From Escherichia phage PSD2001, in the sequence record OK254198.1: a stretch of 64,000 bases of DNA; one strand, 5' to 3'. Below are positions 6,253 through 30,930 of this stretch, piece by piece. Position numbers and translations under genes: made by a program. A model generated the notes under the pieces. The model was not told the DNA's origin, did no database searches, and was given only the letters and a program-made list of their open reading frames with translations. Each line of letters begins with the position of its first letter. The stretch's first letter is position 1.

Positions 6253-8063
6253 TGAAACAGAATTTAAAAATTGGCAATATGGTTGATGATGGTACTGGTG
6301 ATTACCTTCGTCTCGGCGGTCAAAAAATAAACAATAACTTTGACGACCTTTATTATCAGCTGGGTGACGGTGAAAATCCTCATGCGGCTGGTGCATGGAA
6401 AACTTGGACTACACAAGAAGGCACCGAGTTGTCTGCTGTTATGGGTCGAAGCTATACTATCGATACATCAGCCGGTGCGGTTCGAGTCGTCCTCCCGAAA
6501 GGAACAACTCAAGAATACAATTATGTAATTCGATTGCGTGATGTGTTTGCTACCTGGCAAATCAACCCGGTGACAATTGTTCCTGCAGTCGGGGATACGA
6601 TTAAAGGCTCACCAAATCCAGTAGAAATTAAACGCAACTTAGCTGACCTTGAACTTGTATATTGTTCACCAGGTCGTTGGGAATATATCGATAATAAACA
6701 AGTCGATAAAATTTCAAATAACGACGTTGCTACGGTTGCATCCCAACAGTTTATTGCTACCGAAGGGCAAACTGACTTTATCAATGTGTTTGGTGCTATT
6801 CCGTATAGCGTATCGAACTTAGAAGTCAAACATCGTGGTAACGACCTGTTTTATGGTAAAGATGATATTTTCGACCCGGTGAATGCTGAATTTGGTTCCC
6901 CTGGTGCAAACCCTGGTGAAATCGTTGCGCTTGATGGTAAAAGCATCCGTCTGAAAATGCCATGTGCTGAAGGTGATACTGTTATCATCCGAACATTTAA
7001 TGATGGTATTGCTCAATGGCGTAGTTCGTATAATCGTCGTGATATACTTGTTCGTAGTCAAGACAGGGCCAAAGAAACAACAATTAATGGCTCTTTGATT
7101 GTTACGGATTTGACAACCAAACACACCTTTACAATTGAAGAACTTGGTATTTCTCCGGGTAGCCCAATTAACCCAAACGCATGTCAGGTATTCATTAACA
7201 GTATTTTACAACACCAAGCCGGGACCGCAGGAACTCCAGTATTTTATTGCGAAGGTGCACAAGGTTCTACTGCTGCAGAATGTAGTGCAAATGGTGGTAG
7301 CTGGTCTGAATCGACCCAGGATTATTTGCTGCAATTTGATGATGATAACCGTATCGAAGGCATTAGCATTTATCGTGAATTTGAAGACGGTGATATTCTG
7401 TCGGTCATTTGGTACAATAACGATATCGGCACAACTATGACCATGGATGAAATCCGTGATGAGACTGATACTCTTTATGTTTCTCAGGGAAATACATTGA
7501 GCCTAACCGGTCGTGTGCGTATCACAGATTTTGATAATCCGTTTGCACCAAACGTTGAACCAGTCGGTCTTCAGGAAGTTGTTCCATCTTCTGTTGGCGC
7601 TATCTTTGAATTATTCTATCCGGTTGGCACAATTTACGAAAATACGGTTAACCCGAATAACCCGGTTACTTATATGGGATTCGGTTCATGGAAACGTTTG
7701 AAAGAACGTGTAATCGTTGCCTGGTCTGATGACCCTGCCTCAAACTTCCATACAAACAATAATGACCTGGATTCTGGTGGTAACCCACAAGCGACAGCGG
7801 GTGGCACAGGTGGTAGTGTTGAAGTTCATATTAAAGATATAAATGTACCTAAACTTGAAACCGATGAGAAAGTATTAGTTGTTGATGATAATGGTCCGAT
7901 TGTTGTCGGCGGTTGTCAGGTAGACCCAGATGCACAAGGTCCAGCCTATACCAAATACAGAGAAGACAAAGTCACTATTAATCAGGCACAAGACCCTCAA
8001 GCTCAACCGGTTTATACAATGCCTCCATATTTGATTGCTCATCGCTGGGTAAGGATTGCTTAA
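6252..8063 (+). CDS. 10: Baseplate wedge protein gp10
   Basis: 603 aa vs 602 aa in T4; start overlaps gp9 stop (TAATG). Confidence 0.9.
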   Translation: MKQNLKIGNMVDDGTGDYLRLGGQKINNNFDDLYYQLGDGENPHAAGAWKTWTTQEGTELSAVMGRSYTIDTSAGAVRVVLPKGTTQEYNYVIRLRDVFATWQINPVTIVPAVGDTIKGSPNPVEIKRNLADLELVYCSPGRWEYIDNKQVDKISNNDVATVASQQFIATEGQTDFINVFGAIPYSVSNLEVKHRGNDLFYGKDDIFDPVNAEFGSPGANPGEIVALDGKSIRLKMPCAEGDTVIIRTFNDGIAQWRSSYNRRDILVRSQDRAKETTINGSLIVTDLTTKHTFTIEELGISPGSPINPNACQVFINSILQHQAGTAGTPVFYCEGAQGSTAAECSANGGSWSESTQDYLLQFDDDNRIEGISIYREFEDGDILSVIWYNNDIGTTMTMDEIRDETDTLYVSQGNTLSLTGRVRITDFDNPFAPNVEPVGLQEVVPSSVGAIFELFYPVGTIYENTVNPNNPVTYMGFGSWKRLKERVIVAWSDDPASNFHTNNNDLDSGGNPQATAGGTGGSVEVHIKDINVPKLETDEKVLVVDDNGPIVVGGCQVDPDAQGPAYTKYREDKVTINQAQDPQAQPVYTMPPYLIAHRWVRIA

Positions 8064-8728
8064 TGAAAACATTAACGAATAAAAAGGCTGGAGTAATTTC
8101 CCGCCTTGCTAGTTACTTAGAATTTCAAAATACATCAAAAAATATTACGGCTGTCATGGGTCAACGAGCAATCGGCGGCCCATCCGCAACACAAACAACC
8201 GAGGGTATTTTTTATCCAACAGTTCAGAGCGCAATAGATGATATTGCGTTTCGATATGAGCTTCCGGTTGGCAGTGTAATTACTAATACGAATAACCTTT
8301 CTCCTGCAGCAATCAGCCAGTCGGATAAAATTAAATTTACCGGGTCTATTTCTGGTGCTGGGGTTGGTGATACTGTTTTGTTTTTCATTTTTGGTATTCC
8401 AGTTGAGGTTATTGTCGGGGATTCGGCTGTATTAGTTGCTTCCAAGGTTAACGATGCTTTGCTGACGGCTGTTGCTGATAGCTTAATCGTGTCAAGCTCT
8501 GCAATTGATAGTGTGGACCAGTCTATATTAAATATTACATATAACGACTACCAAAACCATAATTTTGCACCTTTTGCTCAATATGGTTGTACGCTTAGCC
8601 AGACTATTACACAGCAACCGCGCGGTGGTTATGGTTCCTGGGAATATCTTGGAACTTCAACCCAGACATTATCAGGTGGCACAGCAAATGGCGCAATTTC
8701 ACTTTACCATTATAAGCGAGTATCGTAA
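8063..8728 (+). CDS. 11: Baseplate wedge protein gp11 (short tail fibre attachment)
   Basis: 221 aa vs 219 aa in T4; translationally coupled to 10 and 12. Confidence 0.9.
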   Translation: MKTLTNKKAGVISRLASYLEFQNTSKNITAVMGQRAIGGPSATQTTEGIFYPTVQSAIDDIAFRYELPVGSVITNTNNLSPAAISQSDKIKFTGSISGAGVGDTVLFFIFGIPVEVIVGDSAVLVASKVNDALLTAVADSLIVSSSAIDSVDQSILNITYNDYQNHNFAPFAQYGCTLSQTITQQPRGGYGSWEYLGTSTQTLSGGTANGAISLYHYKRVS

Positions 8729-10278
8729 TGACAACGACTAACACGCTAAAACACATTAGCGATAAATCCGAATATAAAACATTCGACCCGACGGGAACAG
8801 CTTTCCCGTCGACTGTTACCAACGTACAAGAGGCTTTAGGGTCTCTTAATAAAATTGCGTTAGATGGATATATCCCAGCCTCTTCCGAAACGACCGCAGG
8901 GCTCATCAGACTAGCCACCACACAAGAAGTTATTGATGGTATTAGTCCAGACTCTGCAGTTACTCCAGCGACCTTAAAAGCTCGTTTAGACATCCCTACG
9001 CAAGCCACAGAAACTTATGTCGGTATTACCCGTTATGCAACTAATGCCGAAGCAATTGCCGGAACAGTAACCGATGCGGCTATTGTTCCATCTTCATTAA
9101 AAGCAACAATTGATGATGTTTTTACTGTTCGTGTCGGTACTGAAAATAACCTGGGTGTTCTTCGTATTAGTACCGAGGATGCAGCTTTAGCTGGTACAGA
9201 TGATACAACCGCTATGTCTCCGTTGAAAGTTGCTCTGGCAATTGGCAAAGCAACAGCAGCTCTTCCGACTTATTCAACTGCCACACAAACTGTTTCTGGT
9301 TTAGTACGAATTGCTACAAATGCTGAAGTGCAAGCAGGAACCCTGGGCGACGGTGTAGCAATTTCTCCGGCAGGTTTAAATGCTCGCACAGCAACACAAG
9401 ACCGCACAGGGATTATTCGTCTGGGCAACCAGTCAGAGATTAATAACAGTGCTGATGGTGTTGCAGTAACTGGCGCAACTCTTAATGGTCGTGGTGCTAC
9501 AACCGATATTCGTGGCGTTGTTAGATTAACTACTCAGGCTGGGGTTGCTCCTGGTGGTGATGGTGCCGGTGCACTGGCTTGGAACGCAGATGTAATCAAC
9601 ACTCGCGGTGGTCAACGAATTAATGGAAGTCTTTCTTTAGATTATATTTCCACCGGCAATTTTGATTCCAATACAGCTCATATGGGCGGTCAATTACTTT
9701 CGACACAGCGTTATGCTTCTGAACGGGTTCCAGTTGGAACGGTGATGATGTTCGCAGGTGATAGTGCTCCTCCTGGCTGGATTATGTGTCATGGTGGCAC
9801 CGTTAATGGTGACCAATTCCCTGACTATCGAAATACTGTTGGAACTCGTTTCGGTGGCGATTGGACCAACGTCGGTATTCCTGATATGCGTGGTTTGTTT
9901 GTTCGTGGTGCTGGTACCGGTGGACATATTCTGAATAACCGCGGTCAAGATGGTTATGGCAAAGACCGTTTGGGTGTTGGTTGTGATGGTTCATGGGTCG
10001 GTGGTGTACAAGCTCAGCAAATGTCATATCATAAACACGCGGGTGGTTGGGGTGAATACCAACGTAACGAAGCCCCATTTGGTGCATCAGTTTATCAGGG
10101 TTATCTGGGCACAAGAAAATATGCAGACTGGGATAACGCTTCATATTTTACTAACGATGGATTTGAACTCGGTGGCGGCAGAGATGCTTTAGGTACGTTA
10201 AACCGTGAAGGTCTTATTGGTTATGAAACTCGCCCATGGAATATGTCTTTAAACTATATTATCAAAATTCATTACTAA
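8728..10278 (+). CDS. 12: Short tail fibre protein gp12
   Basis: 516 aa; N-terminus (KFDPTGTAFP..., ATTQEVIDG...VTPATL) resembles T4 gp12; repetitive Gly/Thr/Ala-rich shaft. Confidence 0.9.
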   Translation: MTTTNTLKHISDKSEYKTFDPTGTAFPSTVTNVQEALGSLNKIALDGYIPASSETTAGLIRLATTQEVIDGISPDSAVTPATLKARLDIPTQATETYVGITRYATNAEAIAGTVTDAAIVPSSLKATIDDVFTVRVGTENNLGVLRISTEDAALAGTDDTTAMSPLKVALAIGKATAALPTYSTATQTVSGLVRIATNAEVQAGTLGDGVAISPAGLNARTATQDRTGIIRLGNQSEINNSADGVAVTGATLNGRGATTDIRGVVRLTTQAGVAPGGDGAGALAWNADVINTRGGQRINGSLSLDYISTGNFDSNTAHMGGQLLSTQRYASERVPVGTVMMFAGDSAPPGWIMCHGGTVNGDQFPDYRNTVGTRFGGDWTNVGIPDMRGLFVRGAGTGGHILNNRGQDGYGKDRLGVGCDGSWVGGVQAQQMSYHKHAGGWGEYQRNEAPFGASVYQGYLGTRKYADWDNASYFTNDGFELGGGRDALGTLNREGLIGYETRPWNMSLNYIIKIHY

Positions 10279-21500: not shown

Positions 21501-21928
21501 TGTTTATTATCCCTGATGATTACGAATTAACTCTTGAAAACATCGAAAGTGTTTCCGAAGAAGCTCAGGGACAATTTGATTCATTATCTGAAGCCTTAGA
21601 AAAAGACGATATAAATATTATTGTAGAAAACATGTTTGCAGCCGGTGAATACGAAAAAGCAACGGTTATCGGCGCTCTGAATGAAGGTGTTCAGCTTAAC
21701 GAATTTATCGTTAAACATGTATCGTCTCGCGGTGAGTTAACCCGCACAAAAGACCGAGCTACTCGTAAGCGTAATGCTTTCCAAACAACTGGTCTTTCTA
21801 AAGCTAAACGTCGTCAAATTGCCCGTCTGGCTACTAAAACGAAAAGAGCAAACCCATCTACGCAAATTAGAGCAGAGCGCAAGCGCAAAAAAGCTCGAGC
21901 TAAGCGTAAAGCATTCGGACTTGATTAA
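21500..21928 (+). CDS. 68: Prohead core protein gp68
   Basis: 142 aa vs 141 aa in T4; basic C-terminal tail. Confidence 0.8.
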
Positions 21929-22566
21929 TGGAACAGAAACCAGAGTTACTAATCGAACACTGGGGTCAACCGGGCGAAATTAAAGATGGTGTACCGATGT
22001 TGGAATCTCATGATGGTTCCAGCAGCGGTTTAAAGCCAGGACTTTATATTGAAGGTATTTTCCTACAAGCTGAAGTTGTTAACCGTAATAAACGACTTTA
22101 TCCTAAACATATTTTGGAAAAAGCTGTTGCGGACTATATCGCCGAACAGGTTGAAACCAAGCAGTCTCTTGGAGAATTAAACCATCCACCTCGTGCAAAC
22201 GTTGACCCTATGCAGGCGGCAATTATTATCGAGGAAATGTGGTGGAAAGGGAATGATGTATATGGCCGCGCGCGTATTATCGAAGGCGACCATGGCCCAG
22301 GTGATAAACTTGCTGCGAATATAAGAGCAGGTTGGATTCCTGGCGTATCTAGTCGTGGACTTGGTTCCCTGACTAAATCAGCAAAAGGTTATAGCATCGT
22401 TAATGAAGGTTTTAAATTGACGGTTGGAGTAGACGCAGTATGGGGGCCAAGTGCTCCGGACGCTTGGGTCAAACCAAAGCAGATTACAGAATCACAAACG
22501 GCTGTTGCCGATACCAGTGCCGATGACGCCTTTATGGCTCTCGCAGAGGCTTTAAAGACGTTATAA
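21928..22566 (+). CDS. 21: Prohead core protease gp21
   Basis: 212 aa, same length as T4 gp21; synteny. Confidence 0.9.
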   Translation: MEQKPELLIEHWGQPGEIKDGVPMLESHDGSSSGLKPGLYIEGIFLQAEVVNRNKRLYPKHILEKAVADYIAEQVETKQSLGELNHPPRANVDPMQAAIIIEEMWWKGNDVYGRARIIEGDHGPGDKLAANIRAGWIPGVSSRGLGSLTKSAKGYSIVNEGFKLTVGVDAVWGPSAPDAWVKPKQITESQTAVADTSADDAFMALAEALKTL

Positions 22567-22569
22567 ATA
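22562..22569 (+). promoter_or_regulatory. T4-type late promoter (TATAAATA) for gene 22
   Basis: Exact TATAAATA overlapping the gp21 stop. Confidence 0.55.
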
Positions 22570-22598: not shown

Positions 22599-23417
22599 AT
22601 GCTTAAAGAACAACTCATTTCTGAAGCTCAGAATATCGATGCTTCCGTTGCTCTCGATAGTATTTTCGAATCAGTTAATTTGTCCCCGGAAGCGAAAGCT
22701 ACCTTCGGCACTGTATTCGAAGCTACCGTCAAGCAACACGCCATCAAACTGGCAGAATCTCACATTCACGCCATCGCTGAAAAAGCTGAAGAAGAAGTCG
22801 AAAAGAATAAAGAAGAATCCGACGAAAAAGCAGAGAAAAAACTGAAAGAATCTGCAGCTAAATTCCTGGACCACGTTGCTAAAGAATGGCTCGCTGAAAA
22901 TAAACTGGCTGTCGACCGCGGCATTAAAGCTGACCTGTTCGAATCCATGTTCACCGGCATGAAAGAACTGTTCGTTGAGCACAACGTTGTTGTTCCAGAA
23001 GAATCTGTCGATGTTGTTGCAGAAATGCAGGAAGAACTGGCTGAACAGAAAGAAGAAACCGCTAATCTGTTCGAAGAAGTTGCTAAGCGTGATGCTTATA
23101 TCAATTATGTCCAACGTGAAGTTGCGTTGACTGAAGCGACTAAAGACCTGACTGAATCCCAAAAAGAAAAAGTTGGTTCTCTGGTAGAAGGCATGGAATA
23201 CTCTGATGCATTCGGTACCAAAATTGGCGCTATCGTTGAAATGGTTAAAGGTCAGGTAGAACCCACCAACAAACCAATCACCGAAGCCGCTATAAATAAA
23301 AATGTAGACGATGCTGCGGCACTGAATTACATTTCAGAAGCAGTTGAAGAAAAAGGCGCCAAGCCTACCCTGTCCTTCGCGGACTTGTCTGCTCTCGCAG
23401 CATCACGAATTTCTTAA
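22599..23417 (+). CDS. 22: Prohead scaffold protein gp22
   Basis: 272 aa, Glu/Lys/Ala-rich coiled-coil composition; 269 aa in T4. Confidence 0.88.
   Translation: MLKEQLISEAQNIDASVALDSIFESVNLSPEAKATFGTVFEATVKQHAIKLAESHIHAIAEKAEEEVEKNKEESDEKAEKKLKESAAKFLDHVAKEWLAENKLAVDRGIKADLFESMFTGMKELFVEHNVVVPEESVDVVAEMQEELAEQKEETANLFEEVAKRDAYINYVQREVALTEATKDLTESQKEKVGSLVEGMEYSDAFGTKIGAIVEMVKGQVEPTNKPITEAAINKNVDDAAALNYISEAVEEKGAKPTLSFADLSALAASRIS
23291..23298 (+). promoter_or_regulatory. Candidate late promoter (TATAAATA) inside the 3' end of gene 22, upstream of gene 23
   Basis: Exact TATAAATA 141 nt upstream of the gp23 ATG; could be fortuitous. Confidence 0.35.
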
Positions 23418-23438: not shown

Positions 23439-24998
23439 ATGAAAAAGAATGCATTAGTTCAAAAATGGTCCGCTCTGTTGGAAAACGAAGCTCTTCCGGA
23501 AATCGTTGGTGCTTCTAAACAAGCTATCATCGCTAAAATCTTTGAAAACCAGGAACAAGATATTCTGACCGCTCCTGAATACCGTGACGAAAAAATCTCC
23601 GAGGCATTTGGTTCTTTCCTGACCGAAGCTGAAATCGGTGGTGACCATGGTTATGATGCTACCAATATTGCTGCTGGCCAGACCTCTGGTGCAGTAACTC
23701 AGATTGGGCCGGCAGTTATGGGCATGGTTCGTCGTGCTATCCCGCATCTGATTGCGTTTGATATTTGCGGCGTACAGCCTCTGAACAACCCGACTGGCCA
23801 GGTATTTGCACTGCGTGCAGTATACGGTAAAGACCCTGTCGCTGCTGGTGCTAAAGAAGCTTTCCATCCGATGTATGCTCCGAACGCTATGTTCTCTGGT
23901 CAGGGCGCTGCTAAGACTTTTGAAGCACTGGCTGCAAGCAAAGTTCTGGAAGTTGGTAAAATTTATTCTCACTTCTTCGAAGCAACTGGTTCCGCGCACT
24001 TCCAGGCTGTTGAAGCTGTAACCGTTGATGCTGCTGCTACTGATGCTGCTAAACTTGACGCTGAAGTTACCAAACTGCTCGAAGCTGGTAAGCTGGCTGA
24101 ATTGGCTGAAGGTATGGCTACCTCCATCGCCGAACTGCAAGAAGGTTTTAACGGTTCCTCTGATAACCCGTGGAACGAAATGGGCTTCCGCATCGACAAA
24201 CAAGTTATCGAAGCTAAATCCCGTCAGCTGAAAGCAAGCTACTCCATCGAACTGGCACAGGACCTCCGCGCTGTTCATGGTATGGATGCTGATGCCGAAT
24301 TGAGTGGTATTCTGGCTACCGAAATTATGCTGGAAATCAACCGCGAAGTTATCGATTGGATTAACTACTCCGCACAGGTTGGTAAATCTGGTATGACCAA
24401 CACCGTTGGCGCTAAAGCTGGTGTGTTTGACTTCCAGGACCCGATTGATATCCGTGGTGCTCGTTGGGCTGGTGAAAGCTTCAAAGCTTTACTGTTCCAG
24501 ATTGATAAAGAAGCCGCTGAAATCGCTCGTCAGACCGGTCGTGGTGCAGGTAACTTCATCATCGCTTCCCGTAACGTAGTTAACGTGCTGGCTGCTGTTG
24601 ATACTTCTGTTAGTTATGCTGCTCAGGGTCTGGGTAAAGGTTTCAACGTTGACACCACTAAAGCTGTGTTCGCTGGTGTTCTGGGTGGCAAATACCGTGT
24701 CTATATCGACCAGTATGCTCGTGCAGATTACTTCACCATCGGTTACAAAGGCGCTAACGAAATGGATGCTGGTATCTACTACGCACCATATGTTGCACTG
24801 ACCCCGCTGCGTGGTTCTGACCCGAAAAACTTCCAGCCGGTTATGGGCTTCAAAACCCGTTACGGTATCGGTATCAACCCGTTTGCTGACCCTGCTGCTC
24901 AGGCTCCGACCAAGCGCATTCAGAACGGCATGCCGGACATCGTTAACAGCCTTGGCTTGAACGGTTACTTCCGCCGCGTATATGTTAAAGGAATTTAA
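23439..24998 (+). CDS. 23: Major capsid protein gp23
   Basis: 519 aa; long stretches identical to remembered T4 gp23 (e.g. GGDHGY.ATNIAAGQTSGAVTQIGPAVMGMVRRAIP). Confidence 0.95.
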   Translation: MKKNALVQKWSALLENEALPEIVGASKQAIIAKIFENQEQDILTAPEYRDEKISEAFGSFLTEAEIGGDHGYDATNIAAGQTSGAVTQIGPAVMGMVRRAIPHLIAFDICGVQPLNNPTGQVFALRAVYGKDPVAAGAKEAFHPMYAPNAMFSGQGAAKTFEALAASKVLEVGKIYSHFFEATGSAHFQAVEAVTVDAAATDAAKLDAEVTKLLEAGKLAELAEGMATSIAELQEGFNGSSDNPWNEMGFRIDKQVIEAKSRQLKASYSIELAQDLRAVHGMDADAELSGILATEIMLEINREVIDWINYSAQVGKSGMTNTVGAKAGVFDFQDPIDIRGARWAGESFKALLFQIDKEAAEIARQTGRGAGNFIIASRNVVNVLAAVDTSVSYAAQGLGKGFNVDTTKAVFAGVLGGKYRVYIDQYARADYFTIGYKGANEMDAGIYYAPYVALTPLRGSDPKNFQPVMGFKTRYGIGINPFADPAAQAPTKRIQNGMPDIVNSLGLNGYFRRVYVKGI

Positions 24999-25020
24999 TC
25001 CTAGATTAAGTTAAATAAAA

Positions 25021-25049
25021 AGGGACCCTTGAGGTCCCTTTCTTGTTTT
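25021..25049. terminator. Bidirectional terminator between gene 23 (plus) and the 93-aa minus-strand ORF
   Basis: AGGGACCCTTGAGGTCCCT hairpin flanked by an A-run and a T-rich tract. Confidence 0.65.
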
Positions 25050-25330
25050 CATACCATACCATTTAAATGAACTTCTACCCGGCGCTTGATGAGGTCTCTG
25101 AAGTTAACATTGTTTTCTTGAAGTTTCAACCAGTTACCATTTTTATCTTTAGTGTGAGTAGAATAATTACCATTCCACCAGAAATCAGTGTCATATGCTA
25201 AGTTTTCATATTTTTTAACTAATTTGTTCAGAGCATTACCATTAACACCATTTGGGTATTTGTTGACCAATGCAATAACTTCAATTTCCAATTTTTTAAA
25301 GGTGTTCAGAAGGAAAGTTGATTTGTTCAT
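25049..25330 (-). CDS. Hypothetical 93-aa protein on the antisense strand between genes 23 and 24
   Basis: ATG-initiated ORF with a GGAG RBS and its own early-type promoter; no recognisable motif. Confidence 0.5.
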   Translation of the reverse strand: MNKSTFLLNTFKKLEIEVIALVNKYPNGVNGNALNKLVKKYENLAYDTDFWWNGNYSTHTKDKNGNWLKLQENNVNFRDLIKRRVEVHLNGMV

Positions 25331-25370
25331 TTTAAACTCCAGGTTTTGTTTGTTAACTCAGTATGGAATC

Positions 25371-25400
25371 ATTATGTCTTATCTTAATCTGGTTGTAAAC
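25371..25400 (-). promoter_or_regulatory. Early-type promoter (GTTTAC, 18 nt, CATAAT) for the 93-aa ORF
   Basis: Minus strand GTTTACaaccagattaagataagaCATAAT; leader nearly identical to the one at 50734-50804. Confidence 0.5.
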
Positions 25401-25406
25401 AACTTT

Positions 25407-25414
25407 TATAAATA
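25407..25414 (+). promoter_or_regulatory. T4-type late promoter (TATAAATA) for gene 24
   Basis: Exact TATAAATA 26 nt upstream of the gp24 ATG. Confidence 0.6.
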
Positions 25415-25440
25415 AAGTATATCACAAAAGGAAAGCGCAA

Positions 25441-26721
25441 ATGGCAAAGATTAACAAATTACTGCGCGAGTCAACTACCACTACCAGCAACTCCTTGGGC
25501 CGCCCGAATCTTGTTGCTTTGACCCGCGCTACAACCAAATTGATTTACCGCGATATTATCGCTGAACAACGTACGAACCAGCCAGTTGCGGCTCTGTACG
25601 GTGTTAAATATCTTACTCCTGATAATGAATTCAGTTTCCAAACTGGTGCCGTTTATGGTGGTGAAGTTGGTTCTAAAGACCGTGAAACTATCCCGGAATT
25701 TACAACCCCAACTCAAGCCGTAGCTAAAGGTGGATACATTAAATTCCAGAATATCGTTTATAAAGCTCTGGTTGATAATCCATTTGCATCGACTACCGAA
25801 ACTGTATTATCCGATGTTCTGCAAGAAGGTCTTATTGCATTAACTATTCGTTTGGTTCCTGATGCGGCGCACACCGAGAAATTTGAAGCCGGGGATGTTG
25901 AGATTAGTAATGCTGTATTCCAGGTCAACAAATGGAATGCTCCGGTTAAAACACGTAAATTGAAAACTGCATTAACTGTTGAGCTTGCTCAGGATATGGA
26001 AGCAAATGGGTTTAATGCTCCTGCTTTCCTGGAAGACTTGCTTGCCACTATTATGGCAGATGAAATTAACAAAGATGTTCTTCAGTCTCTTATTACCGTT
26101 TCCAAGCGTTATAAAGTAACTGGTGTTTCTGACAATGGCGTCATCGATTTAACATATGATGCAGCTCCAGAAGGCGCACGTAAACTGTACGAACTAGTTT
26201 GTGAAATGAACTCCGAGATTCAGAAAACTACATCTTATTCCGGTACCTTTGTTGTTGCCTCTAGCCGTGTTGCTGCTATGTTGGCTGGCTCTGGCTGGCT
26301 GAAACATAAACCAGAAGATGAACAATGGCTTCCTGAAACAGCGTACGGTTATTTGATTAATGGCCTCCCTGTATTCTGTGATGTTAACAGTCCATTAGAT
26401 TATGTAACCGTTGGCGTTAAAGAAAATTACGGCGGAAACGAAGTCGTAGGCTCAATCTTCTATGCTCCTTATACCGAAGGTCTGGACTTAGATGATGAAG
26501 AGCATGTAGGCGCGTTTAAGGTCATTGTGGACCCTGACAGTTTGCAACCAGCTATCTCTTTGATGGTTCGTTATGCACTTTCAGCTAACCCGTACACCGT
26601 TGCTAAAGACGATAAAGAAGCTCGTATTATCGACGCAACCAATATGGATTTAATGGCCGGTCAGAGCAATATGTCTTATCTGCTCGGTGTTAAACTTCCG
26701 CCAATCATTTATGAGGCGTAA
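25441..26721 (+). CDS. 24: Capsid vertex protein gp24 (copy 1, T4-like)
   Basis: 426 aa; N-terminus MAKINKLLRESTTTTSNSLGRPNLVALTRATTKLIY closely matches T4 gp24. Confidence 0.92.
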   Translation: MAKINKLLRESTTTTSNSLGRPNLVALTRATTKLIYRDIIAEQRTNQPVAALYGVKYLTPDNEFSFQTGAVYGGEVGSKDRETIPEFTTPTQAVAKGGYIKFQNIVYKALVDNPFASTTETVLSDVLQEGLIALTIRLVPDAAHTEKFEAGDVEISNAVFQVNKWNAPVKTRKLKTALTVELAQDMEANGFNAPAFLEDLLATIMADEINKDVLQSLITVSKRYKVTGVSDNGVIDLTYDAAPEGARKLYELVCEMNSEIQKTTSYSGTFVVASSRVAAMLAGSGWLKHKPEDEQWLPETAYGYLINGLPVFCDVNSPLDYVTVGVKENYGGNEVVGSIFYAPYTEGLDLDDEEHVGAFKVIVDPDSLQPAISLMVRYALSANPYTVAKDDKEARIIDATNMDLMAGQSNMSYLLGVKLPPIIYEA

Positions 26722-28005
26722 ATGCAAAAGATTAACGCACTAATTCACGAATCAACATTAACGGCGGCCAACCAGGTCGCCCGTCCTAATTTACTTTCTT
26801 ATACTCAGGCTACGAATAAACGAATTTTTAAAGCGCTCGTGGCTGAACAGAAAACTACCCAGCCTGTTGCTGCGTTGTATGGTGTTCGTGTTCTGAACCC
26901 AGATGATAAAATGACTTATCTTGGCGGAGCAACATTTGCAGGTCAGATTGGTATGTTCGAGCGTAAGAATATCCCAGAATTTACGAACAAAGACGAAGAT
27001 TATGCAGTCGGTGATATGTTCCAGTTTGAAAGTGTTGTGTTCAAAGTTTTGGAAGCATCACCATTCGCCGGGACTCTCGAAACTGATTTGGGTGAAGTTA
27101 TTTCTGAAGCCATTGCGGCTGGCCATATAAGAATGATGTCAGATGCAGCTTTCACTGATAAATTTGAAAAAGGTCATCCTGAAATTGCTGAAGCTGGTTT
27201 TCGTATTGATAAATGGCAGACTGAAGTTAAATCCAGAAAGCTGAAAACTTCTTTAACTGTTGAGCTTGCTCAAGACCTGGAAGCAAACGGTTTCGATGCA
27301 ACAGACTTCATCGATAATATTCTCGGCATTCAAATGGCAGAGGAAATTAATAAGGATGTACTGCAATCCCTTATTACTGTCAGTTCTCGCTTCAAGGTGC
27401 AAGGTGTTTCTGAAAAAGGTGTATTGAATCTAACTGACCCGAAATATGATAATGCTCAGGACCGTGCGCGAACCCTGTATTATTATATGTGTGAAATGAA
27501 CTCTGCAGTTCAACGTCAGACTTCGTTTGCTGGCACATATGCAGTCGCTTCTTCCCGTTGTGCAGCTATTTTAGCAGCTTCTGGTTGGGTTGAGAAAAAG
27601 GAAGACCAGGATGAATTAGCCTATGGCGTTCTGAAGAACGGTTTACCACTTTATGCAGATATGAATAGTCCATGTGATTATGTTATTGTCGGTGTAAATG
27701 CTGATATGGGTGAAGGTCAGACGGTCGCATCTTTGTATTATGCGCCTTATACGGAAGGTCTTAGCGAAGTTGATGATGAGGGTGATACCTCGGTCGGGGA
27801 ATTCAAGGTTATTGTTGACCCTGAAAGCTTGCAGCCTACTGTTGCGCTATTAGCTCGTTATGCATTGACAGCGAACCCTTATACGGTTGCGAAAGATGAT
27901 AAAGAAGCTCGCATTATTGATGGTGCTGATATGGATAAGATGGCTAACCAAAGCCAATTGAGTTCTTATCTTGGTGTTAAACTTCCACCACTGGAAAAAG
28001 AATAA
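26722..28005 (+). CDS. Capsid vertex protein gp24 paralog (copy 2, diverged)
   Basis: 427 aa, collinear with copy 1 (shared blocks RKLKT.LTVELAQD.EANGF, EINKDVLQSLITVS, ANPYTVAKDDKEARIID); starts at the ATG directly after the copy 1 stop. Confidence 0.85.
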   Translation: MQKINALIHESTLTAANQVARPNLLSYTQATNKRIFKALVAEQKTTQPVAALYGVRVLNPDDKMTYLGGATFAGQIGMFERKNIPEFTNKDEDYAVGDMFQFESVVFKVLEASPFAGTLETDLGEVISEAIAAGHIRMMSDAAFTDKFEKGHPEIAEAGFRIDKWQTEVKSRKLKTSLTVELAQDLEANGFDATDFIDNILGIQMAEEINKDVLQSLITVSSRFKVQGVSEKGVLNLTDPKYDNAQDRARTLYYYMCEMNSAVQRQTSFAGTYAVASSRCAAILAASGWVEKKEDQDELAYGVLKNGLPLYADMNSPCDYVIVGVNADMGEGQTVASLYYAPYTEGLSEVDDEGDTSVGEFKVIVDPESLQPTVALLARYALTANPYTVAKDDKEARIIDGADMDKMANQSQLSSYLGVKLPPLEKE

Positions 28006-28027
28006 GGGCCTTGCGGCCCTTTTTTTT
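28006..28027. terminator. Bidirectional terminator between gp24 copy 2 (plus) and rnlB (minus)
   Basis: GGGCCTTGCGGCCC hairpin with an A-run upstream and TTTTTTTT downstream. Confidence 0.7.
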
Positions 28028-29033
28028 ATTCACTAACTAATGCAATCCAAACGTGTCTTAATGTTTCTCTTACATTTGCGATGAGTTGCTTTTTAACTTC
28101 AACAGGATTTTCCGCCAGGGTCAATTCAAGGCCTTCGCGCCCGGCTTCTTCCAGAATATCTTGAACTGTTAGCCCCATTACCTTTCCAAAATCCTTCGGT
28201 GTTACTTCCCCAATTTTACTGATAACATTGTTGATACGGTTAACAGTCACATAATCAGTGAAATTCCACAGTAAATCCATATCATTTTGGCTCAGAACCA
28301 CTGCAGCCTTAATAGGCTTATCAGACTTTTTCTTTTCACTGAATTTAGAGTTCTTACATTTAATCGCTACACGCTCGCCGTTAGGTAACCATGCAGGAAC
28401 ATCAGGTTTTAATACAAATCCTTCAGCAGTGAATACTTTACCTTCCACCTTTGCATCAAAATCAGTGGTATTTGCTGTAGTCAATCCTGCGTTATCCACT
28501 GTAAAATTGTAATCAGGGACCACAGAATCCAGGTCATTAGGTAGCTTAATTAATTCTTCAAAACTACCTGTAGCCAGGCGCGGGGCAACTTTAAACTTAT
28601 GAATAATACAAAAGGCTTCCATAAGTGTGTCAGTCAGGACGGATTCAGAGCCATCTTCCTTAGTAACGCGGATATCAAACACATAGAAATCTTTATCGCC
28701 GTAATTCACATTCTTCTGAATACCTGTACCAGCAAACTCACCATAAATCTGATATGCCTGATAATTAATATCCTGCAAAAGTTTCTGCACAGATTTAATA
28801 GAATCTGCATAGTTCTTTAATACAATTTCATAACCATAGAAATCTTCTGCAGGTAGGATAGGTCCAGTGCGTTTCGCACATGTCACATTGTCTTGTTCAA
28901 TGATTAATGAAAAGTTGGTACCATGAATCTTCTCGCGAGCTACCCATTCACCGCTGGTGAAGCCTTGCAGGCGAATCTTTTCAATGAACTTGTTGTTATA
29001 GTGATTTTCAAGGCTGTTGTATTTCTTAAACAT
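28026..29033 (-). CDS. rnlB: RNA ligase 2
   Basis: 335 aa; N-terminus and motif I ([10 protein letters not shown]) closely match T4 Rnl2. Confidence 0.92.
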
Positions 29034-29796: not shown

Positions 29797-30930
29797 TTAA
29801 TAAACGTAATCGTATATAATACCAGCTTCTAAAGCGGTGCGATGAATAATTCGACCATTACGAGATTCTTGTACATCAACCTCTGGATAGTCGGTAATCA
29901 TTTTTTGAAGGGTATATCGGTGCAAATAATACGGGCTATCTGGAGCATCAGTTTTCCAGTCTTGTCCAGCAAGAGTCATTTTCTGAATTTCGTCCATAAC
30001 CCACCAACCACACCAGATATAAGCTGAATTACGAACTGGCAGCGGATGAACGTAAGGTAATTCGCCATCTGGAACAGGTGCTACTTTAGCTGTGATAGTT
30101 ACATTACCAGTTTTTGTGACAGTCGCCGGGTTATAATCTGTAGCAGATACAACAACAGAAACTTCAATTACCTGTGAACCTTCAGCGCTTGTATCGATTG
30201 CTAGAGTATCCGTGGTGCCAACTACAGGAGAACCGTCTTTCTTCCAAGAATAGGCAAAAGTAGCTCCACTCGGTGCGCCAACTACATCTGCTTTAAATGA
30301 AGCTAGGGTGTCTTCCGGAACATTAATCGAAGCTGGGGTTAATGTCACAGAAACACCTGTCATAGTTTTCTTAACAAAAGTTACCGCAGCTCCTTTAGTT
30401 GCGGTGCCATTATTATAATCGGGTGCAGAAACAGTAACTTCACAGTTCAATGTATAATTTGCTTCTGCTGATTCGGTAACAGTAATAGTTTTACCGGTTT
30501 GACCTGGGATTACGCTAGTGTTACGTTTCCAAACATAAGCGATTGTTGCACCAGAAGGAGCGCCTGTCACGTTAGCAGTAACAACTTGAGATTGCCCCAC
30601 TTCTTTAGTAACAGAGGCCGGGTCTAAAGTCAATGTAATAGCAGGCATTGTTTTATTCTGGATAGTTAAAGTTGTCTCAGCTTCAGCTGTTTCTGGTTCG
30701 CCGTCCGCTGGTGTAGTTGTTGCAACAACTTTAATAGTCTTACTGCCTGCTGGACCAACAGCAATATAATCCATTGCAGCAGTCACAGAAGATTGAGGAA
30801 CGCCATCAACGGTCCAGACAAATGATTCGGTACCTTCAGCTGCAGCACCAGAACCGGTCGCAGTGAAATTGGTTGTTGCTCCAATAACGGCCGTAGCCGC
30901 CAAAGGAGCAATAGTTACGGTATAAGCCAT
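29797..30930 (-). CDS. hoc: Highly immunogenic outer capsid protein Hoc
   Basis: 377 aa vs 376 aa in T4; Ig-like repeats and conserved C-terminal capsid-binding block (ELPYVHPLP...YIWCGWWVMDEIQKMT). Confidence 0.92.
   Translation of the reverse strand: MAYTVTIAPLAATAVIGATTNFTATGSGAAAEGTESFVWTVDGVPQSSVTAAMDYIAVGPAGSKTIKVVATTTPADGEPETAEAETTLTIQNKTMPAITLTLDPASVTKEVGQSQVVTANVTGAPSGATIAYVWKRNTSVIPGQTGKTITVTESAEANYTLNCEVTVSAPDYNNGTATKGAAVTFVKKTMTGVSVTLTPASINVPEDTLASFKADVVGAPSGATFAYSWKKDGSPVVGTTDTLAIDTSAEGSQVIEVSVVVSATDYNPATVTKTGNVTITAKVAPVPDGELPYVHPLPVRNSAYIWCGWWVMDEIQKMTLAGQDWKTDAPDSPYYLHRYTLQKMITDYPEVDVQESRNGRIIHRTALEAGIIYDYVY

Follow-up and report, generated by a model that had tools for sequence, protein, structure and literature searches.

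Two gene 24-type capsid vertex protein genes in tandem in Escherichia phage PSD2001 and related T-even phages

The duplication of an HK97-fold capsid gene, giving rise to a specialised shell subunit that is encoded beside its parent, has a precedent in the T4-type phages. The vertex protein gp24 is held to be a derivative of gp23 (PMC10580926, PMC3012670), and the outcome of this paralogy is established: gp23 forms the hexamers and gp24 the pentamers of the capsid. The T4 protein (PDB 1YUE, 5VF3, 7VRT/7VS5) is the product of one gene, as the sequence-only reading of the PSD2001 locus had stated; a tblastn search of the T4 locus with both of the genes described below matches gene 24 and gene 23 alone. 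A closer precedent is found in those relatives of T4 in which GenBank records already annotate a pair of such genes, namely JS98 (24a/24b), VR7 (24(1)/24(2)), VR20 ('capsid vertex protein I/II'), S16 and others. The abstract of the 2004 J Bacteriol paper on JS98 by Chibani-Chennoufi et al. reportedly speaks of a 'gene 24 duplication in JS98'. Full-text searches of the accessible literature found neither a discussion of the gene 24 pair nor a study of two-copy virions by proteomics or cryo-EM.

The DNA analysed here, referred to as the window, is a stretch of 64,000 nucleotides from Escherichia phage PSD2001 (OK254198.1), and it belongs to a Gaprivervirus-like T-even phage with a nucleotide identity of 98% to phage P896 and 91% to VR7. 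Its locus matches those of JS98, VR7 and VR20 (Dhakavirus, Gaprivervirus) in the genes, their order and the abutting junction, and also in the flanks, which run from gene 23 through a small reverse ORF and the pair to the convergent rnlB. There is no difference of substance, and the window represents a further isolate of this group. The pair is already known from public records (JS98, VR7, S16 and dozens more), and as a genome observation it is nothing new. The features of the locus are collected in Table 1; in the window the pair follows genes 21, 22 and 23 and precedes rnlB, hoc and inh.

Table 1. Features of the gene 24 locus of PSD2001 and its head-gene surroundings (window coordinates)
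Feature	Position	Strand	Description
Gene 21, prohead protease	21928..22566	+	PHROG 207 'head maturation protease', E = 4e-76; syntenic with gene 21 of JS98 and VR7
Gene 23, major capsid protein	23439..24998	+	Pfam PF07068, 409 bits
Predicted bidirectional hairpin terminator 3' of gene 23	25019..25043	both	Stem of 9-12 pairs, then a T run; upstream edge of the gene 24 unit
T4-type late promoter motif	25407..25414	+	TATAAATA; 26 nt 5' of the copy 1 ATG; pattern search
Gene 24 copy 1	25441..26721	+	426 aa, ATG start; T4-type capsid vertex protein; orthologue of JS98 24a and VR7 24(1)
GAGG ribosome-binding site of copy 2	26713..26716	+	Within the last codons of copy 1; read from the sequence
Gene 24 copy 2	26722..28005	+	427 aa, ATG start; vertex paralogue of the second type; orthologue of JS98 24b and VR7 24(2), 'capsid vertex protein II'
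Predicted bidirectional hairpin terminator after copy 2	28004..28021	both	AAGGGCCTTGCGGCCCTT, then T8; common to the convergent rnlB

Judged by sequence, both copies are intact full-length homologues of gp24 and far nearer to it than to gp23. Pfam PF07068 covers the whole length of each (326 and 327 bits), and the assignment to PHROG 138 also backs their membership of the family. The T4 gp24 chain 1yue_A is matched end to end (residues 1-424) with 650 bits by copy 1 and 497 bits by copy 2, against just 46-51 bits over ~235 residues for gp23 chains. The ORF list, BLASTP, PF07068 and 1yue_A thereby all agree with the initial description of two full-length gp24-type genes lying head to tail, and its factual statements are all correct. 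In the pairwise alignments that the sequence-only reading had called for (MAFFT), copy 1 is 69.2% and copy 2 56.3% identical to T4 gp24, so that the closeness claimed for copy 1 amounts to 69% identity. The two copies share 240 of 428 positions (56%; BLASTP, E = 5e-174), a similarity that by this measure is far above chance level, and copy 2 is, as had been stated, diverged yet collinear with copy 1 from end to end. Compared with this full-length relationship, the split between gp23 and gp24 is much older, since gp23 aligns with both copies at 28-29% identity over the C-terminal ~250 aa only. The two genes also occupy the genomic slot of T4 gene 24, in the late head-gene cluster 3' of genes 21-22-23 and with a late promoter motif upstream. 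The likeness to T4 gp24 therefore extends from full-length homology and the N-terminal L-x-E|S motif to the genomic slot and its promoter; the difference is that T4 has one gene where PSD2001 has two, and that copy 2 represents a separate subfamily absent from T4.

The layout of the pair reads as one unit, consisting of a late promoter, copy 1, an abutting stop and start with an embedded GAGG, copy 2 and a terminator. At the junction, tatGAGGcgTAAATGcaa, the copy 1 TAA (26719-26721) is followed without a gap (0 nt) by the copy 2 ATG (26722-26724), just as had been noted at the outset, and the GAGG lies 5 nt 5' of that ATG. The motif TATAAATA is the single late promoter motif serving the pair: the pattern occurs at 19 sites in the window compared with 4.3 expected, and nowhere within 25415-28005. 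The window was also searched for a terminator separating the copies and for a late promoter inside the pair, and neither is present. The same arrangement recurs in relatives. In VR7, JS98, dhaeg, IME523, S16 and PWKp18 the late motif is located 33-36 nt 5' of copy 1 and is missing from the interior of copy 1. Stop and start are separated by -4 to +1 nt in all seven tandem junctions examined, six of which keep the GAGG, PWKp18 having GTGAG instead. Immediately after copy 2, a GC-rich hairpin-like inverted repeat can be discerned by eye, in unfolded sequence, in each of six other two-copy phages. Both vertex proteins would be made late, off one mRNA and in coupled amounts.

A survey of relatives, another of the checks suggested earlier, located the tandem pair in at least five genera (Gaprivervirus, Dhakavirus, Kanagawavirus, Gelderlandvirus and Marfavirus), in Erwinia phage FBB1 and in uncultured contigs. 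Named examples are S16 and SEA1 (Gelderlandvirus), PWKp18 (Marfavirus), IME523 (Kanagawavirus) and dhaeg, and the hosts of pair-bearing phages range over Salmonella, Klebsiella, Enterobacter and Erwinia too. Both genes are present in 77 of the 78 phage records matched by megablast, and an orthologue of copy 2 with at least 80% amino acid identity occurs in 106 phage records. A tandem pair with -4 to +1 nt between stop and start is the rule in VR7, JS98, dhaeg, IME523, S16, PWKp18 and the contigs L015, L016 and L018; SEA1 has the pair in the same order with a 1-nt overlap according to its annotated coordinates. The copy-2 type is the second tandem gene in every locus examined, those of the FBB1-like pair and the uncultured contigs included. 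Copy 1 is 94.8% identical to VR7 24(1) and 90.1% to JS98 24a, while copy 2 is 98.4% identical to VR7 24(2), 95.3% to JS98 24b, 84.3% to its S16 and 80.6% to its PWKp18 orthologue. The sequence-only reading had considered that copy 2 might be a recognised, widespread T4-like gene with a different established role; recognised and widespread it is, and a separately established role is not among its attributes.

Copy 2 retains the hallmarks of a vertex protein and adds features of its own. In T4, gp21 removes the 10 N-terminal residues of gp24 (PMC9546572). A gp21 cleavage motif is recognisable, at the sequence level, at the N-terminus of both copy 1 (MAKINKLLRE|S) and copy 2 (MQKINALIHE|S); LLRE|S is kept in the copy-1 orthologues and L-I-x-E|S (residues 7-11) in eight of eight copy-2 orthologues, and the general motif (L/I-x-E, with the cut before Ser11) occurs in eight of eight aligned orthologues of either copy. 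Both proteins would be expected to enter the prohead and to be trimmed after Glu10 by the gp21 protease. Across all Tevenvirinae gp24 proteins compared, 180 alignment columns are invariant. At 17 further positions, copy 2 has an invariant residue of its own where all the other proteins share a different one; these positions cluster at T4 residues 25-36, 56-68, 244-245, 288, 335, 341 and 415, and the copy-2 subfamily also carries an acidic insertion of 2-3 residues in the 348-359 loop (T4 numbering). AlphaFold2 modelled copy 2 poorly (mean pLDDT 59, pTM 0.60). A Foldseek search with this poor model returned the T4 gp24 chains first (5vf3_a with E = 4e-33, then 7vrt and 1yue) and gp23 behind them, at TM scores of just 0.40-0.43, and so adds nothing to the outcome of the sequence comparison. 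For copy 2 we infer an HK97-like fold with the T4-specific insertion (I) domain from its 56% identity to a protein of solved structure rather than from the model.

The age of the pair was addressed with neighbour-joining trees of Kimura-corrected distances, in which bootstrap values were counted as unrooted splits. With 21 taxa the copy-1 and the copy-2 clades each have 100% support, copy 1 joins T4, RB69 and Karamvirus at 94%, and monophyly of copy 1 plus copy 2 receives 0%; with 60 taxa, support is 100% for the copy-2 family and 94% for the T4-type superclade. Among polarised signature sites the ratio is 7 to 2 to 1 in favour of copy 1 plus T4. Copy 1 is, by these comparisons, nearer to the single T4 gp24 than to its own neighbour, and because its place in the trees is beside T4 gp24 rather than copy 2, the split between the copies would be older than the divergence of T4 gp24 and copy 1. 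In the 60-taxon tree the members of the FBB1-like pair take the basal position, each in its own half (90% and 94%), and for this reason the two halves mirror each other. The pair would accordingly be ancient in one of two ways: either the duplication preceded the radiation of the T4-type gp24 and the lines of T4, RB69 and Karamvirus later lost the second gene, or the pair arose once and later spread through recombination between conserved flanks. The copy-2 stem is long, with 0.21 substitutions per site and 13 autapomorphies compared with six for copy 1; given this stem and trees made by neighbour joining only, a burst of substitutions after the duplication, together with long-branch attraction, has still to be reckoned with. 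Reciprocal loss, with Jiaodavirus retaining the copy-2 type alone, was considered on the strength of a 62% grouping with 21 taxa and dropped when support fell to 3% with 60 taxa.

These results bear directly on two other accounts of where copy 2 comes from. The suspicion that it is a redundant spare, left over from a recent, lineage-specific tandem duplication and drifting under relaxed selection, draws on the head-to-tail layout and on the greater distance of copy 2 (56%) than of copy 1 (69%) from T4 gp24. Yet its orthologues are 78-98% identical across five genera, both genes are intact at each locus read, and the copies are never monophyletic in the bootstrap. The copy 1 and copy 2 clades are under equally strong purifying selection: dN/dS (NG86) is 0.022-0.056 for copy 2 (unsaturated pairs), which is not above the 0.051-0.062 of copy 1 or the 0.053 of gp24 between T4 and RB69. 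For the window, the values for copy 1 and copy 2 are 0.051 and 0.029 against VR7, and 0.052 and 0.022 against JS98, and eight orthologues of copy 1 have a mean pairwise identity of 84.2%, eight of copy 2 one of 84.8%. A recent spare is in our view vanishingly unlikely, and the spare under relaxed selection that the sequence-only reading had suggested falls with it. A duplication that is recent or peculiar to PSD2001 is not supported either, being at odds with the annotation of the pair elsewhere, its presence in nearly all matching records and the grouping of copy 1 with T4. A lateral origin, in which copy 2 stems from a diverged T4-like lineage, was inserted once beside gene 24 and spread by homologous recombination via the gene 24 and rnlB flanks, deserves more weight; we take it to be a genuine possibility that falls somewhat short of probable. 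Among single-copy phages, the Jiaodavirus gp24 proteins come nearest to copy 2 (63-65% identity), with the weak 62% grouping among 21 taxa, although copy 2 plus Jiaoda/Teguna drops to 3% in the 60-taxon set. Several pairs look mosaic. Contig L016 has a first copy (P0035) that falls within the T4/Karam/Moon clade (98%), while its second (P0013) groups with P0007, P0009, P0014 and P0015 (92%), three of which have Marfavirus-like first-copy partners; likewise, JS98 24b groups with Gaprivervirus and JS98 24a with other Dhakavirus. The two-copy genera are, moreover, non-monophyletic in the gp23 tree, and tblastn (E <= 10) detected no second-copy remnants 3' of gene 24 in the single-copy genomes of T4, RB69, Karamvirus, Jiaodavirus, Acinetobacter, Krischvirus and Slopekvirus. 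Against this stand the basal position that the FBB1-like pair holds in each half of the tree, which co-inheritance since an old duplication would predict, and the GC content of copy 2 (0.40-0.44), which resembles that of copy 1 (0.42-0.43) and gives no sign of foreign origin by composition. The trees of first copies, second copies and gp23 are partly incongruent, and recombination therefore blurs the choice between loss and transfer. A lateral origin would concern the origin alone and leave the function of copy 2 as under an old duplication.

With regard to function, we consider it likely that Gaprivervirus-like phages such as PSD2001 carry a conserved, ancient two-gene vertex module, 24(1)-24(2), in which both genes encode non-redundant vertex proteins. 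Both products would be HK97-fold penton subunits. In the most likely arrangement the pentamers would be of two kinds, or the 11 non-portal vertices of the prolate head would fall into classes that use different pentamers, and the earlier suggestion that two vertex proteins could mean different pentamer compositions is a plausible one. An alternative would be that the two pentons are not co-assembled and that each performs best under a different condition, such as temperature, host chaperones or pH, thereby widening the range of head assembly or survival. VR-type phages are described as low-temperature coliphages in the titles devoted to them, and vertex composition does affect stability, given that T4 bypass capsids lacking gp24 have reduced stability at low pH (PMC10580926). 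With one promoter and a coupled stop and start, on the other hand, there is no means of differential expression, and the pair is also found in Salmonella, Klebsiella, Enterobacter and Erwinia phages, which makes such alternative pentons improbable. We know of no unusual growth condition common to these two-copy phages. That copy 2 has ceased to be a shell subunit and acts, for instance, as a prohead-only assembly factor or as a decoy for capsid-sensing host defences is more doubtful still, and we would give it very little credence. Its specific invariant changes in the N-terminal arm and linker 1 could alter assembly behaviour, but copy 2 is still full-length, has all domains and the protease site, and keeps those blocks of gp24 that are most conserved. 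The I domain is, moreover, the most variable long region in copy 2 as in copy 1 (69% and 64% mean identity), which fits an I domain protruding at the surface as it does in T4 gp24 (PMC9546572).

What is of biological interest here is a second vertex protein that strong purifying selection has preserved while several phage genera radiated, that would always be expressed together with the first and that has invariant, presumably surface, changes of its own. The combination of purifying selection on copy 2, its pairing with copy 1 and these changes argues that the capsid corners of two-copy phages are not all built of one protein, and it suggests that T4, the structural model of the family, may be a reduced case. 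A bolder proposal, which we put forward tentatively and think unlikely to hold in full, is that the paralogues form two distinct pentons at defined, different classes among the 11 non-portal vertices, the two-penton state being ancestral for T4-type phages and the single T4 gp24 a secondary simplification. Equally speculative examples of such classes would be the axial apex as opposed to the ten off-axis shoulder vertices, or the portal-proximal as opposed to the distal rings. If true, two-copy phages would be the first tailed phages with capsid vertex proteins tied to particular positions.

Two minor observations concern the locus itself. Nucleotide identity between the copies ranges from 49 to 74% in 90-nt windows, and gene conversion between them was discarded for want of a high-identity tract. 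In PWKp18, IME523 and the contigs L015 and L016, extra ORFs lie between copy 2 and rnlB.

The two adjoining gp24-type genes of the window form a tandem pair that is real, correctly described, already known and ordinary for its phage group. The sequence-only reading held that two full-length gp24 genes lie head to tail, that the first is close to T4 gp24 and the second diverged but collinear, starting at the ATG next to the preceding stop codon, and that T4 has a single gene 24; all of these points hold. The TAA of the first gene (copy 1) at 26719-26721 is followed without a gap by the ATG of the second (copy 2); 5 nt ahead of this start codon, within the final codons of copy 1, there is a GAGG. 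Aligned over their whole length, the two proteins share 240/428 residues (56%, E = 5e-174), and in a single MAFFT alignment copy 1 is 69.2% and copy 2 56.3% identical to T4 gp24. Each copy matches Pfam PF07068 across its full length, and both match PHROG 138. In a search against solved structures the T4 gp24 chain 1yue_A (residues 1-424) scored 650 bits with copy 1 and 497 bits with copy 2, whereas gp23 chains reached only about 50 bits with both copies, in the C-terminal half; compared directly with the window's own gp23, both copies show 28-29% identity in their C-terminal ~250 aa.

Coordinates and distribution of the paired vertex protein genes and neighbouring features
Feature	Record or genus	Position	Strand	Size	Source or members
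Copy 1 ORF	window	25441-26721	+	426 aa	ORF list
Copy 2 ORF, adjoining copy 1	window	26722-28005	+	427 aa	ORF list
Late promoter motif TATAAATA	window	25407-25414			
Hairpin terminator after gene 23	window	25019-25043			
Hairpin terminator after copy 2	window	28004-28021, then T run			
Small ORF, PHROG 6003	window	25049-25330	-	93 aa	
Hoc-like gene, PHROG 1149	window	29797-30930	-	377 aa	
Collagen-repeat ORF	VR7 (L002)	7749-9032	+		
Tandem pair	contig L016	2724-5278			
JS98 pair (mosaic comparison)	L001	4059-6623			
dhaeg pair (mosaic comparison)	L010	2212-4775			
Two-copy locus	Gelderlandvirus				S16, SEA1
Two-copy locus	Marfavirus				PWKp18
Two-copy locus	Dhakavirus, second member				dhaeg
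Two-copy locus	Kanagawavirus				IME523

Only one T4-type late promoter motif lies near the pair, 26 nt ahead of the copy 1 start codon; a pattern search of the window found none inside copy 1 or ahead of copy 2, and no terminator was found between the copies, the next hairpin following directly after copy 2. The layout is the same in VR7, JS98, dhaeg, IME523, S16 and PWKp18. In each, a lone late promoter sits 33-36 nt ahead of copy 1, with none inside that gene; stop and start are -4 to +1 nt apart; and a GC-rich inverted repeat (judged by eye) lies directly 3' of copy 2. The final copy 1 codons contain GAGG in all but PWKp18, which has GTGAG. The pair is thus probably transcribed on one bicistronic late mRNA with translational coupling. 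Across the whole window the promoter motif occurs at 19 sites against 4.3 expected from shuffles, including 23291-23298 and 22562-22569, most of them on the + strand ahead of structural genes.

The sequence-only reading had also entertained a spare copy under relaxed selection, which dN/dS and orthologue identity rule out. Nei-Gojobori estimates for pairs with unsaturated dS gave, for copy 1 and copy 2, 0.051 and 0.029 (window vs VR7), 0.052 and 0.022 (window vs JS98) and 0.054 and 0.055 (JS98 vs dhaeg); T4 vs RB69 gp24 gave 0.053 for comparison. Averaged over pairs drawn from the same eight phages, identity comes to 84.2% in copy 1 and 84.8% in copy 2. By these measures copy 2 is as constrained as copy 1, a point added by the present analysis. 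There is no sign of gene conversion between the copies, since their nucleotide identity is 49-74% in 90-nt windows.

The copy 2 protein has features of its own. In T4 the gp21 protease removes 10 N-terminal residues of gp24, and the I domain forms protrusions on the capsid surface (PMC9546572). Copy 1 has LLRE/S, as in T4, and L-I-x-E/S is kept in 8/8 copy-2 orthologues. With limits set at T4 residues 82-142 (approximated from the linker limits in PMC9546572), the I domain is the least conserved long region in both copies, at a mean identity of 64% (copy 1) and 69% (copy 2). At seventeen positions copy 2 is invariant and differs from a residue that is itself invariant across copy 1, T4, RB69, Karamvirus and Jiaodavirus. 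Clusters lie at T4 residues 25-36 and 56-68, in the N-terminal region and linker 1 of the I domain, and further such positions are 244-245, 288, 335, 341 and 415. The copy-2-specific changes include an acidic insertion of 2-3 residues in the 348-359 loop, and in region 231-300 the copy-2 orthologues are 92% conserved, yet match T4 at only 42% identity. On these features copy 2 is a separate subfamily under constraint, not a decayed gene. Structure prediction adds nothing beyond the sequence match: an AlphaFold2 model from a 45-sequence alignment was of low confidence (pLDDT 59, pTM 0.60), and Foldseek with this model ranked T4 gp24 chains first (E = 4e-33 to 7e-26, TM only 0.40-0.43) and gp23 below them.

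A survey of relatives, also proposed at the outset, found the pair in several genera. Megablast with 25000-28100 returned 84 phage records, 77 covering at least 80% of the query, the best being Escherichia phages P896 and 212 (98.2%), VR20 (95.4%) and VR7 (91%); JS98-like phages come next, at about 82%. VR7 is filed under Gaprivervirus and JS98 under Dhakavirus. When only the pair served as query, both genes were present in one piece in 77 of the 78 records matched, and tblastn found a copy 2 orthologue of at least 80% identity in 106 phage records. A search of a large protein collection uncovered a deeper branch of copy-2-type proteins (66-70% identity), among them that of Erwinia phage FBB1, a phage with a first-type gp24 as well. 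In every contig examined the copy-2 type is second in tandem after a T4-type gene 24, with convergent rnlB downstream. Single-copy loci were confirmed in T4, RB69, Karamvirus, Jiaodavirus, an Acinetobacter phage, Krischvirus and Slopekvirus.

The simplest reading of the trees is that the two copies split before copy 1 and T4 gp24 diverged. In neighbour-joining trees of 21 sequences, with bootstrap values read as unrooted splits, the copy-1 and copy-2 clades each received 100%, copy 1 plus T4/RB69/Karamvirus 94%, and copy 1 plus copy 2 0%. Outgroup-polarised signature sites number 7 for copy 1 with the T4 group, 2 for copy 1 with copy 2 and 1 for copy 2 with the T4 group; copy 2 has 13 autapomorphies and copy 1 has 6. 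A set of 60 sequences, in which added taxa break the long copy-2 stem, supported the copy-2 family at 100% and, at 94%, a T4-type superclade of all first copies with the gp24 of T4, RB69, Karamvirus, Citrobacter phage Merlin and others. Both halves have the FBB1-like pair at their base (90% and 94%), so that the topologies mirror each other. A younger duplication followed by a rate burst in copy 2 is unlikely; it keeps some weight because only distance methods underlie the trees and the stem leading to copy 2 is long. On the older split, the single gene of T4 would reflect loss and may be a derived state; no remnant of a second gene was found in single-copy genomes. In the gp23 tree the two-copy genera are non-monophyletic, with T4/RB69 nested among them (93%). 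The present analysis adds that the pair is no peculiarity of JS98-type phages but has a much greater age and a wider distribution.

An alternative is a single origin followed by spread through recombination in the conserved flanks, which mosaic pairs favour. In L016 (uncultured contig SRR22802695_265) P0035, the first copy, belongs to the T4/Karamvirus/Moonvirus gp24 clade (98%) and P0013, the second, to a copy-2 subclade with P0007, P0009, P0014 and P0015 (92%), three of which have Marfavirus-like first-copy partners; this mosaic bears on repeated loss versus lateral movement of copy 2. JS98 24b is nearer Gaprivervirus copy 2 (95.3%) than that of dhaeg, the other Dhakavirus (91.3%), whereas 24a is nearer dhaeg (94.8%) than the window (90.1%). 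Bootstrap splits agree for both JS98 genes, and this differing grouping suggests a recombination breakpoint between or within 24a and 24b.

Two intact, co-oriented, tightly juxtaposed gp24 genes thus sit within one promoter-to-terminator unit, each under strong purifying selection and with the protease motif. Both products would be late virion proteins: on entering the prohead they would be cut by gp21, and as penton subunits neither would be redundant. The 11 gp24 pentamers of the T4 head, with 11 independent gp24 subunits per asymmetric unit (PMC9546572), fall into three symmetry classes under the five-fold axis. Position-specific pentons are the most attractive possibility, as a candidate arrangement; pentons alternating with conditions, or a role of copy 2 outside the shell, are less likely in view of the points counted against them.

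The pair lies in the T4 head cluster, with the gene 21 protease, gene 22 scaffold and gene 23 upstream; after gene 23 come a small reverse ORF, copies 1 and 2, convergent rnlB, 24.2, 24.3, hoc and inh. The reverse ORF has homologues in JS98 orf173 and VR7 ORF190c. In T4 the same slot between genes 23 and 24 is filled by the homing endonuclease segD; RB69 has two tiny ORFs there, and both KP15 and an Acinetobacter phage carry homing endonucleases. The slot looks like a hotspot for insertions. The ORF that VR7 carries downstream of 24.3 bears the label collagen triple-helix repeat protein, and in the window the Hoc-like gene takes the matching place; a faint collagen-repeat ORF directly follows copy 2 in the FBB1-like contig L015.

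Prior knowledge of the pair was judged from GenBank annotation, and a 2004 JS98 paper reportedly mentions a 'gene 24 duplication in JS98'. The genes are 24a and 24b (both 'gp24 head vertex protein') in JS98, 24(1) and 24(2) in VR7, 'capsid vertex protein I/II' in VR20, VR25, VR26 and VR5, and 'head vertex protein I/II' in CGG4-1. Public records are inconsistent: in ECML-359 neither copy is apparently annotated as a CDS, dhaeg labels the second gene 'capsid vertex protein I', and IME523 labels both copies 'major head protein' and attaches the note 'capsid vertex protein gp24' to its Hoc.
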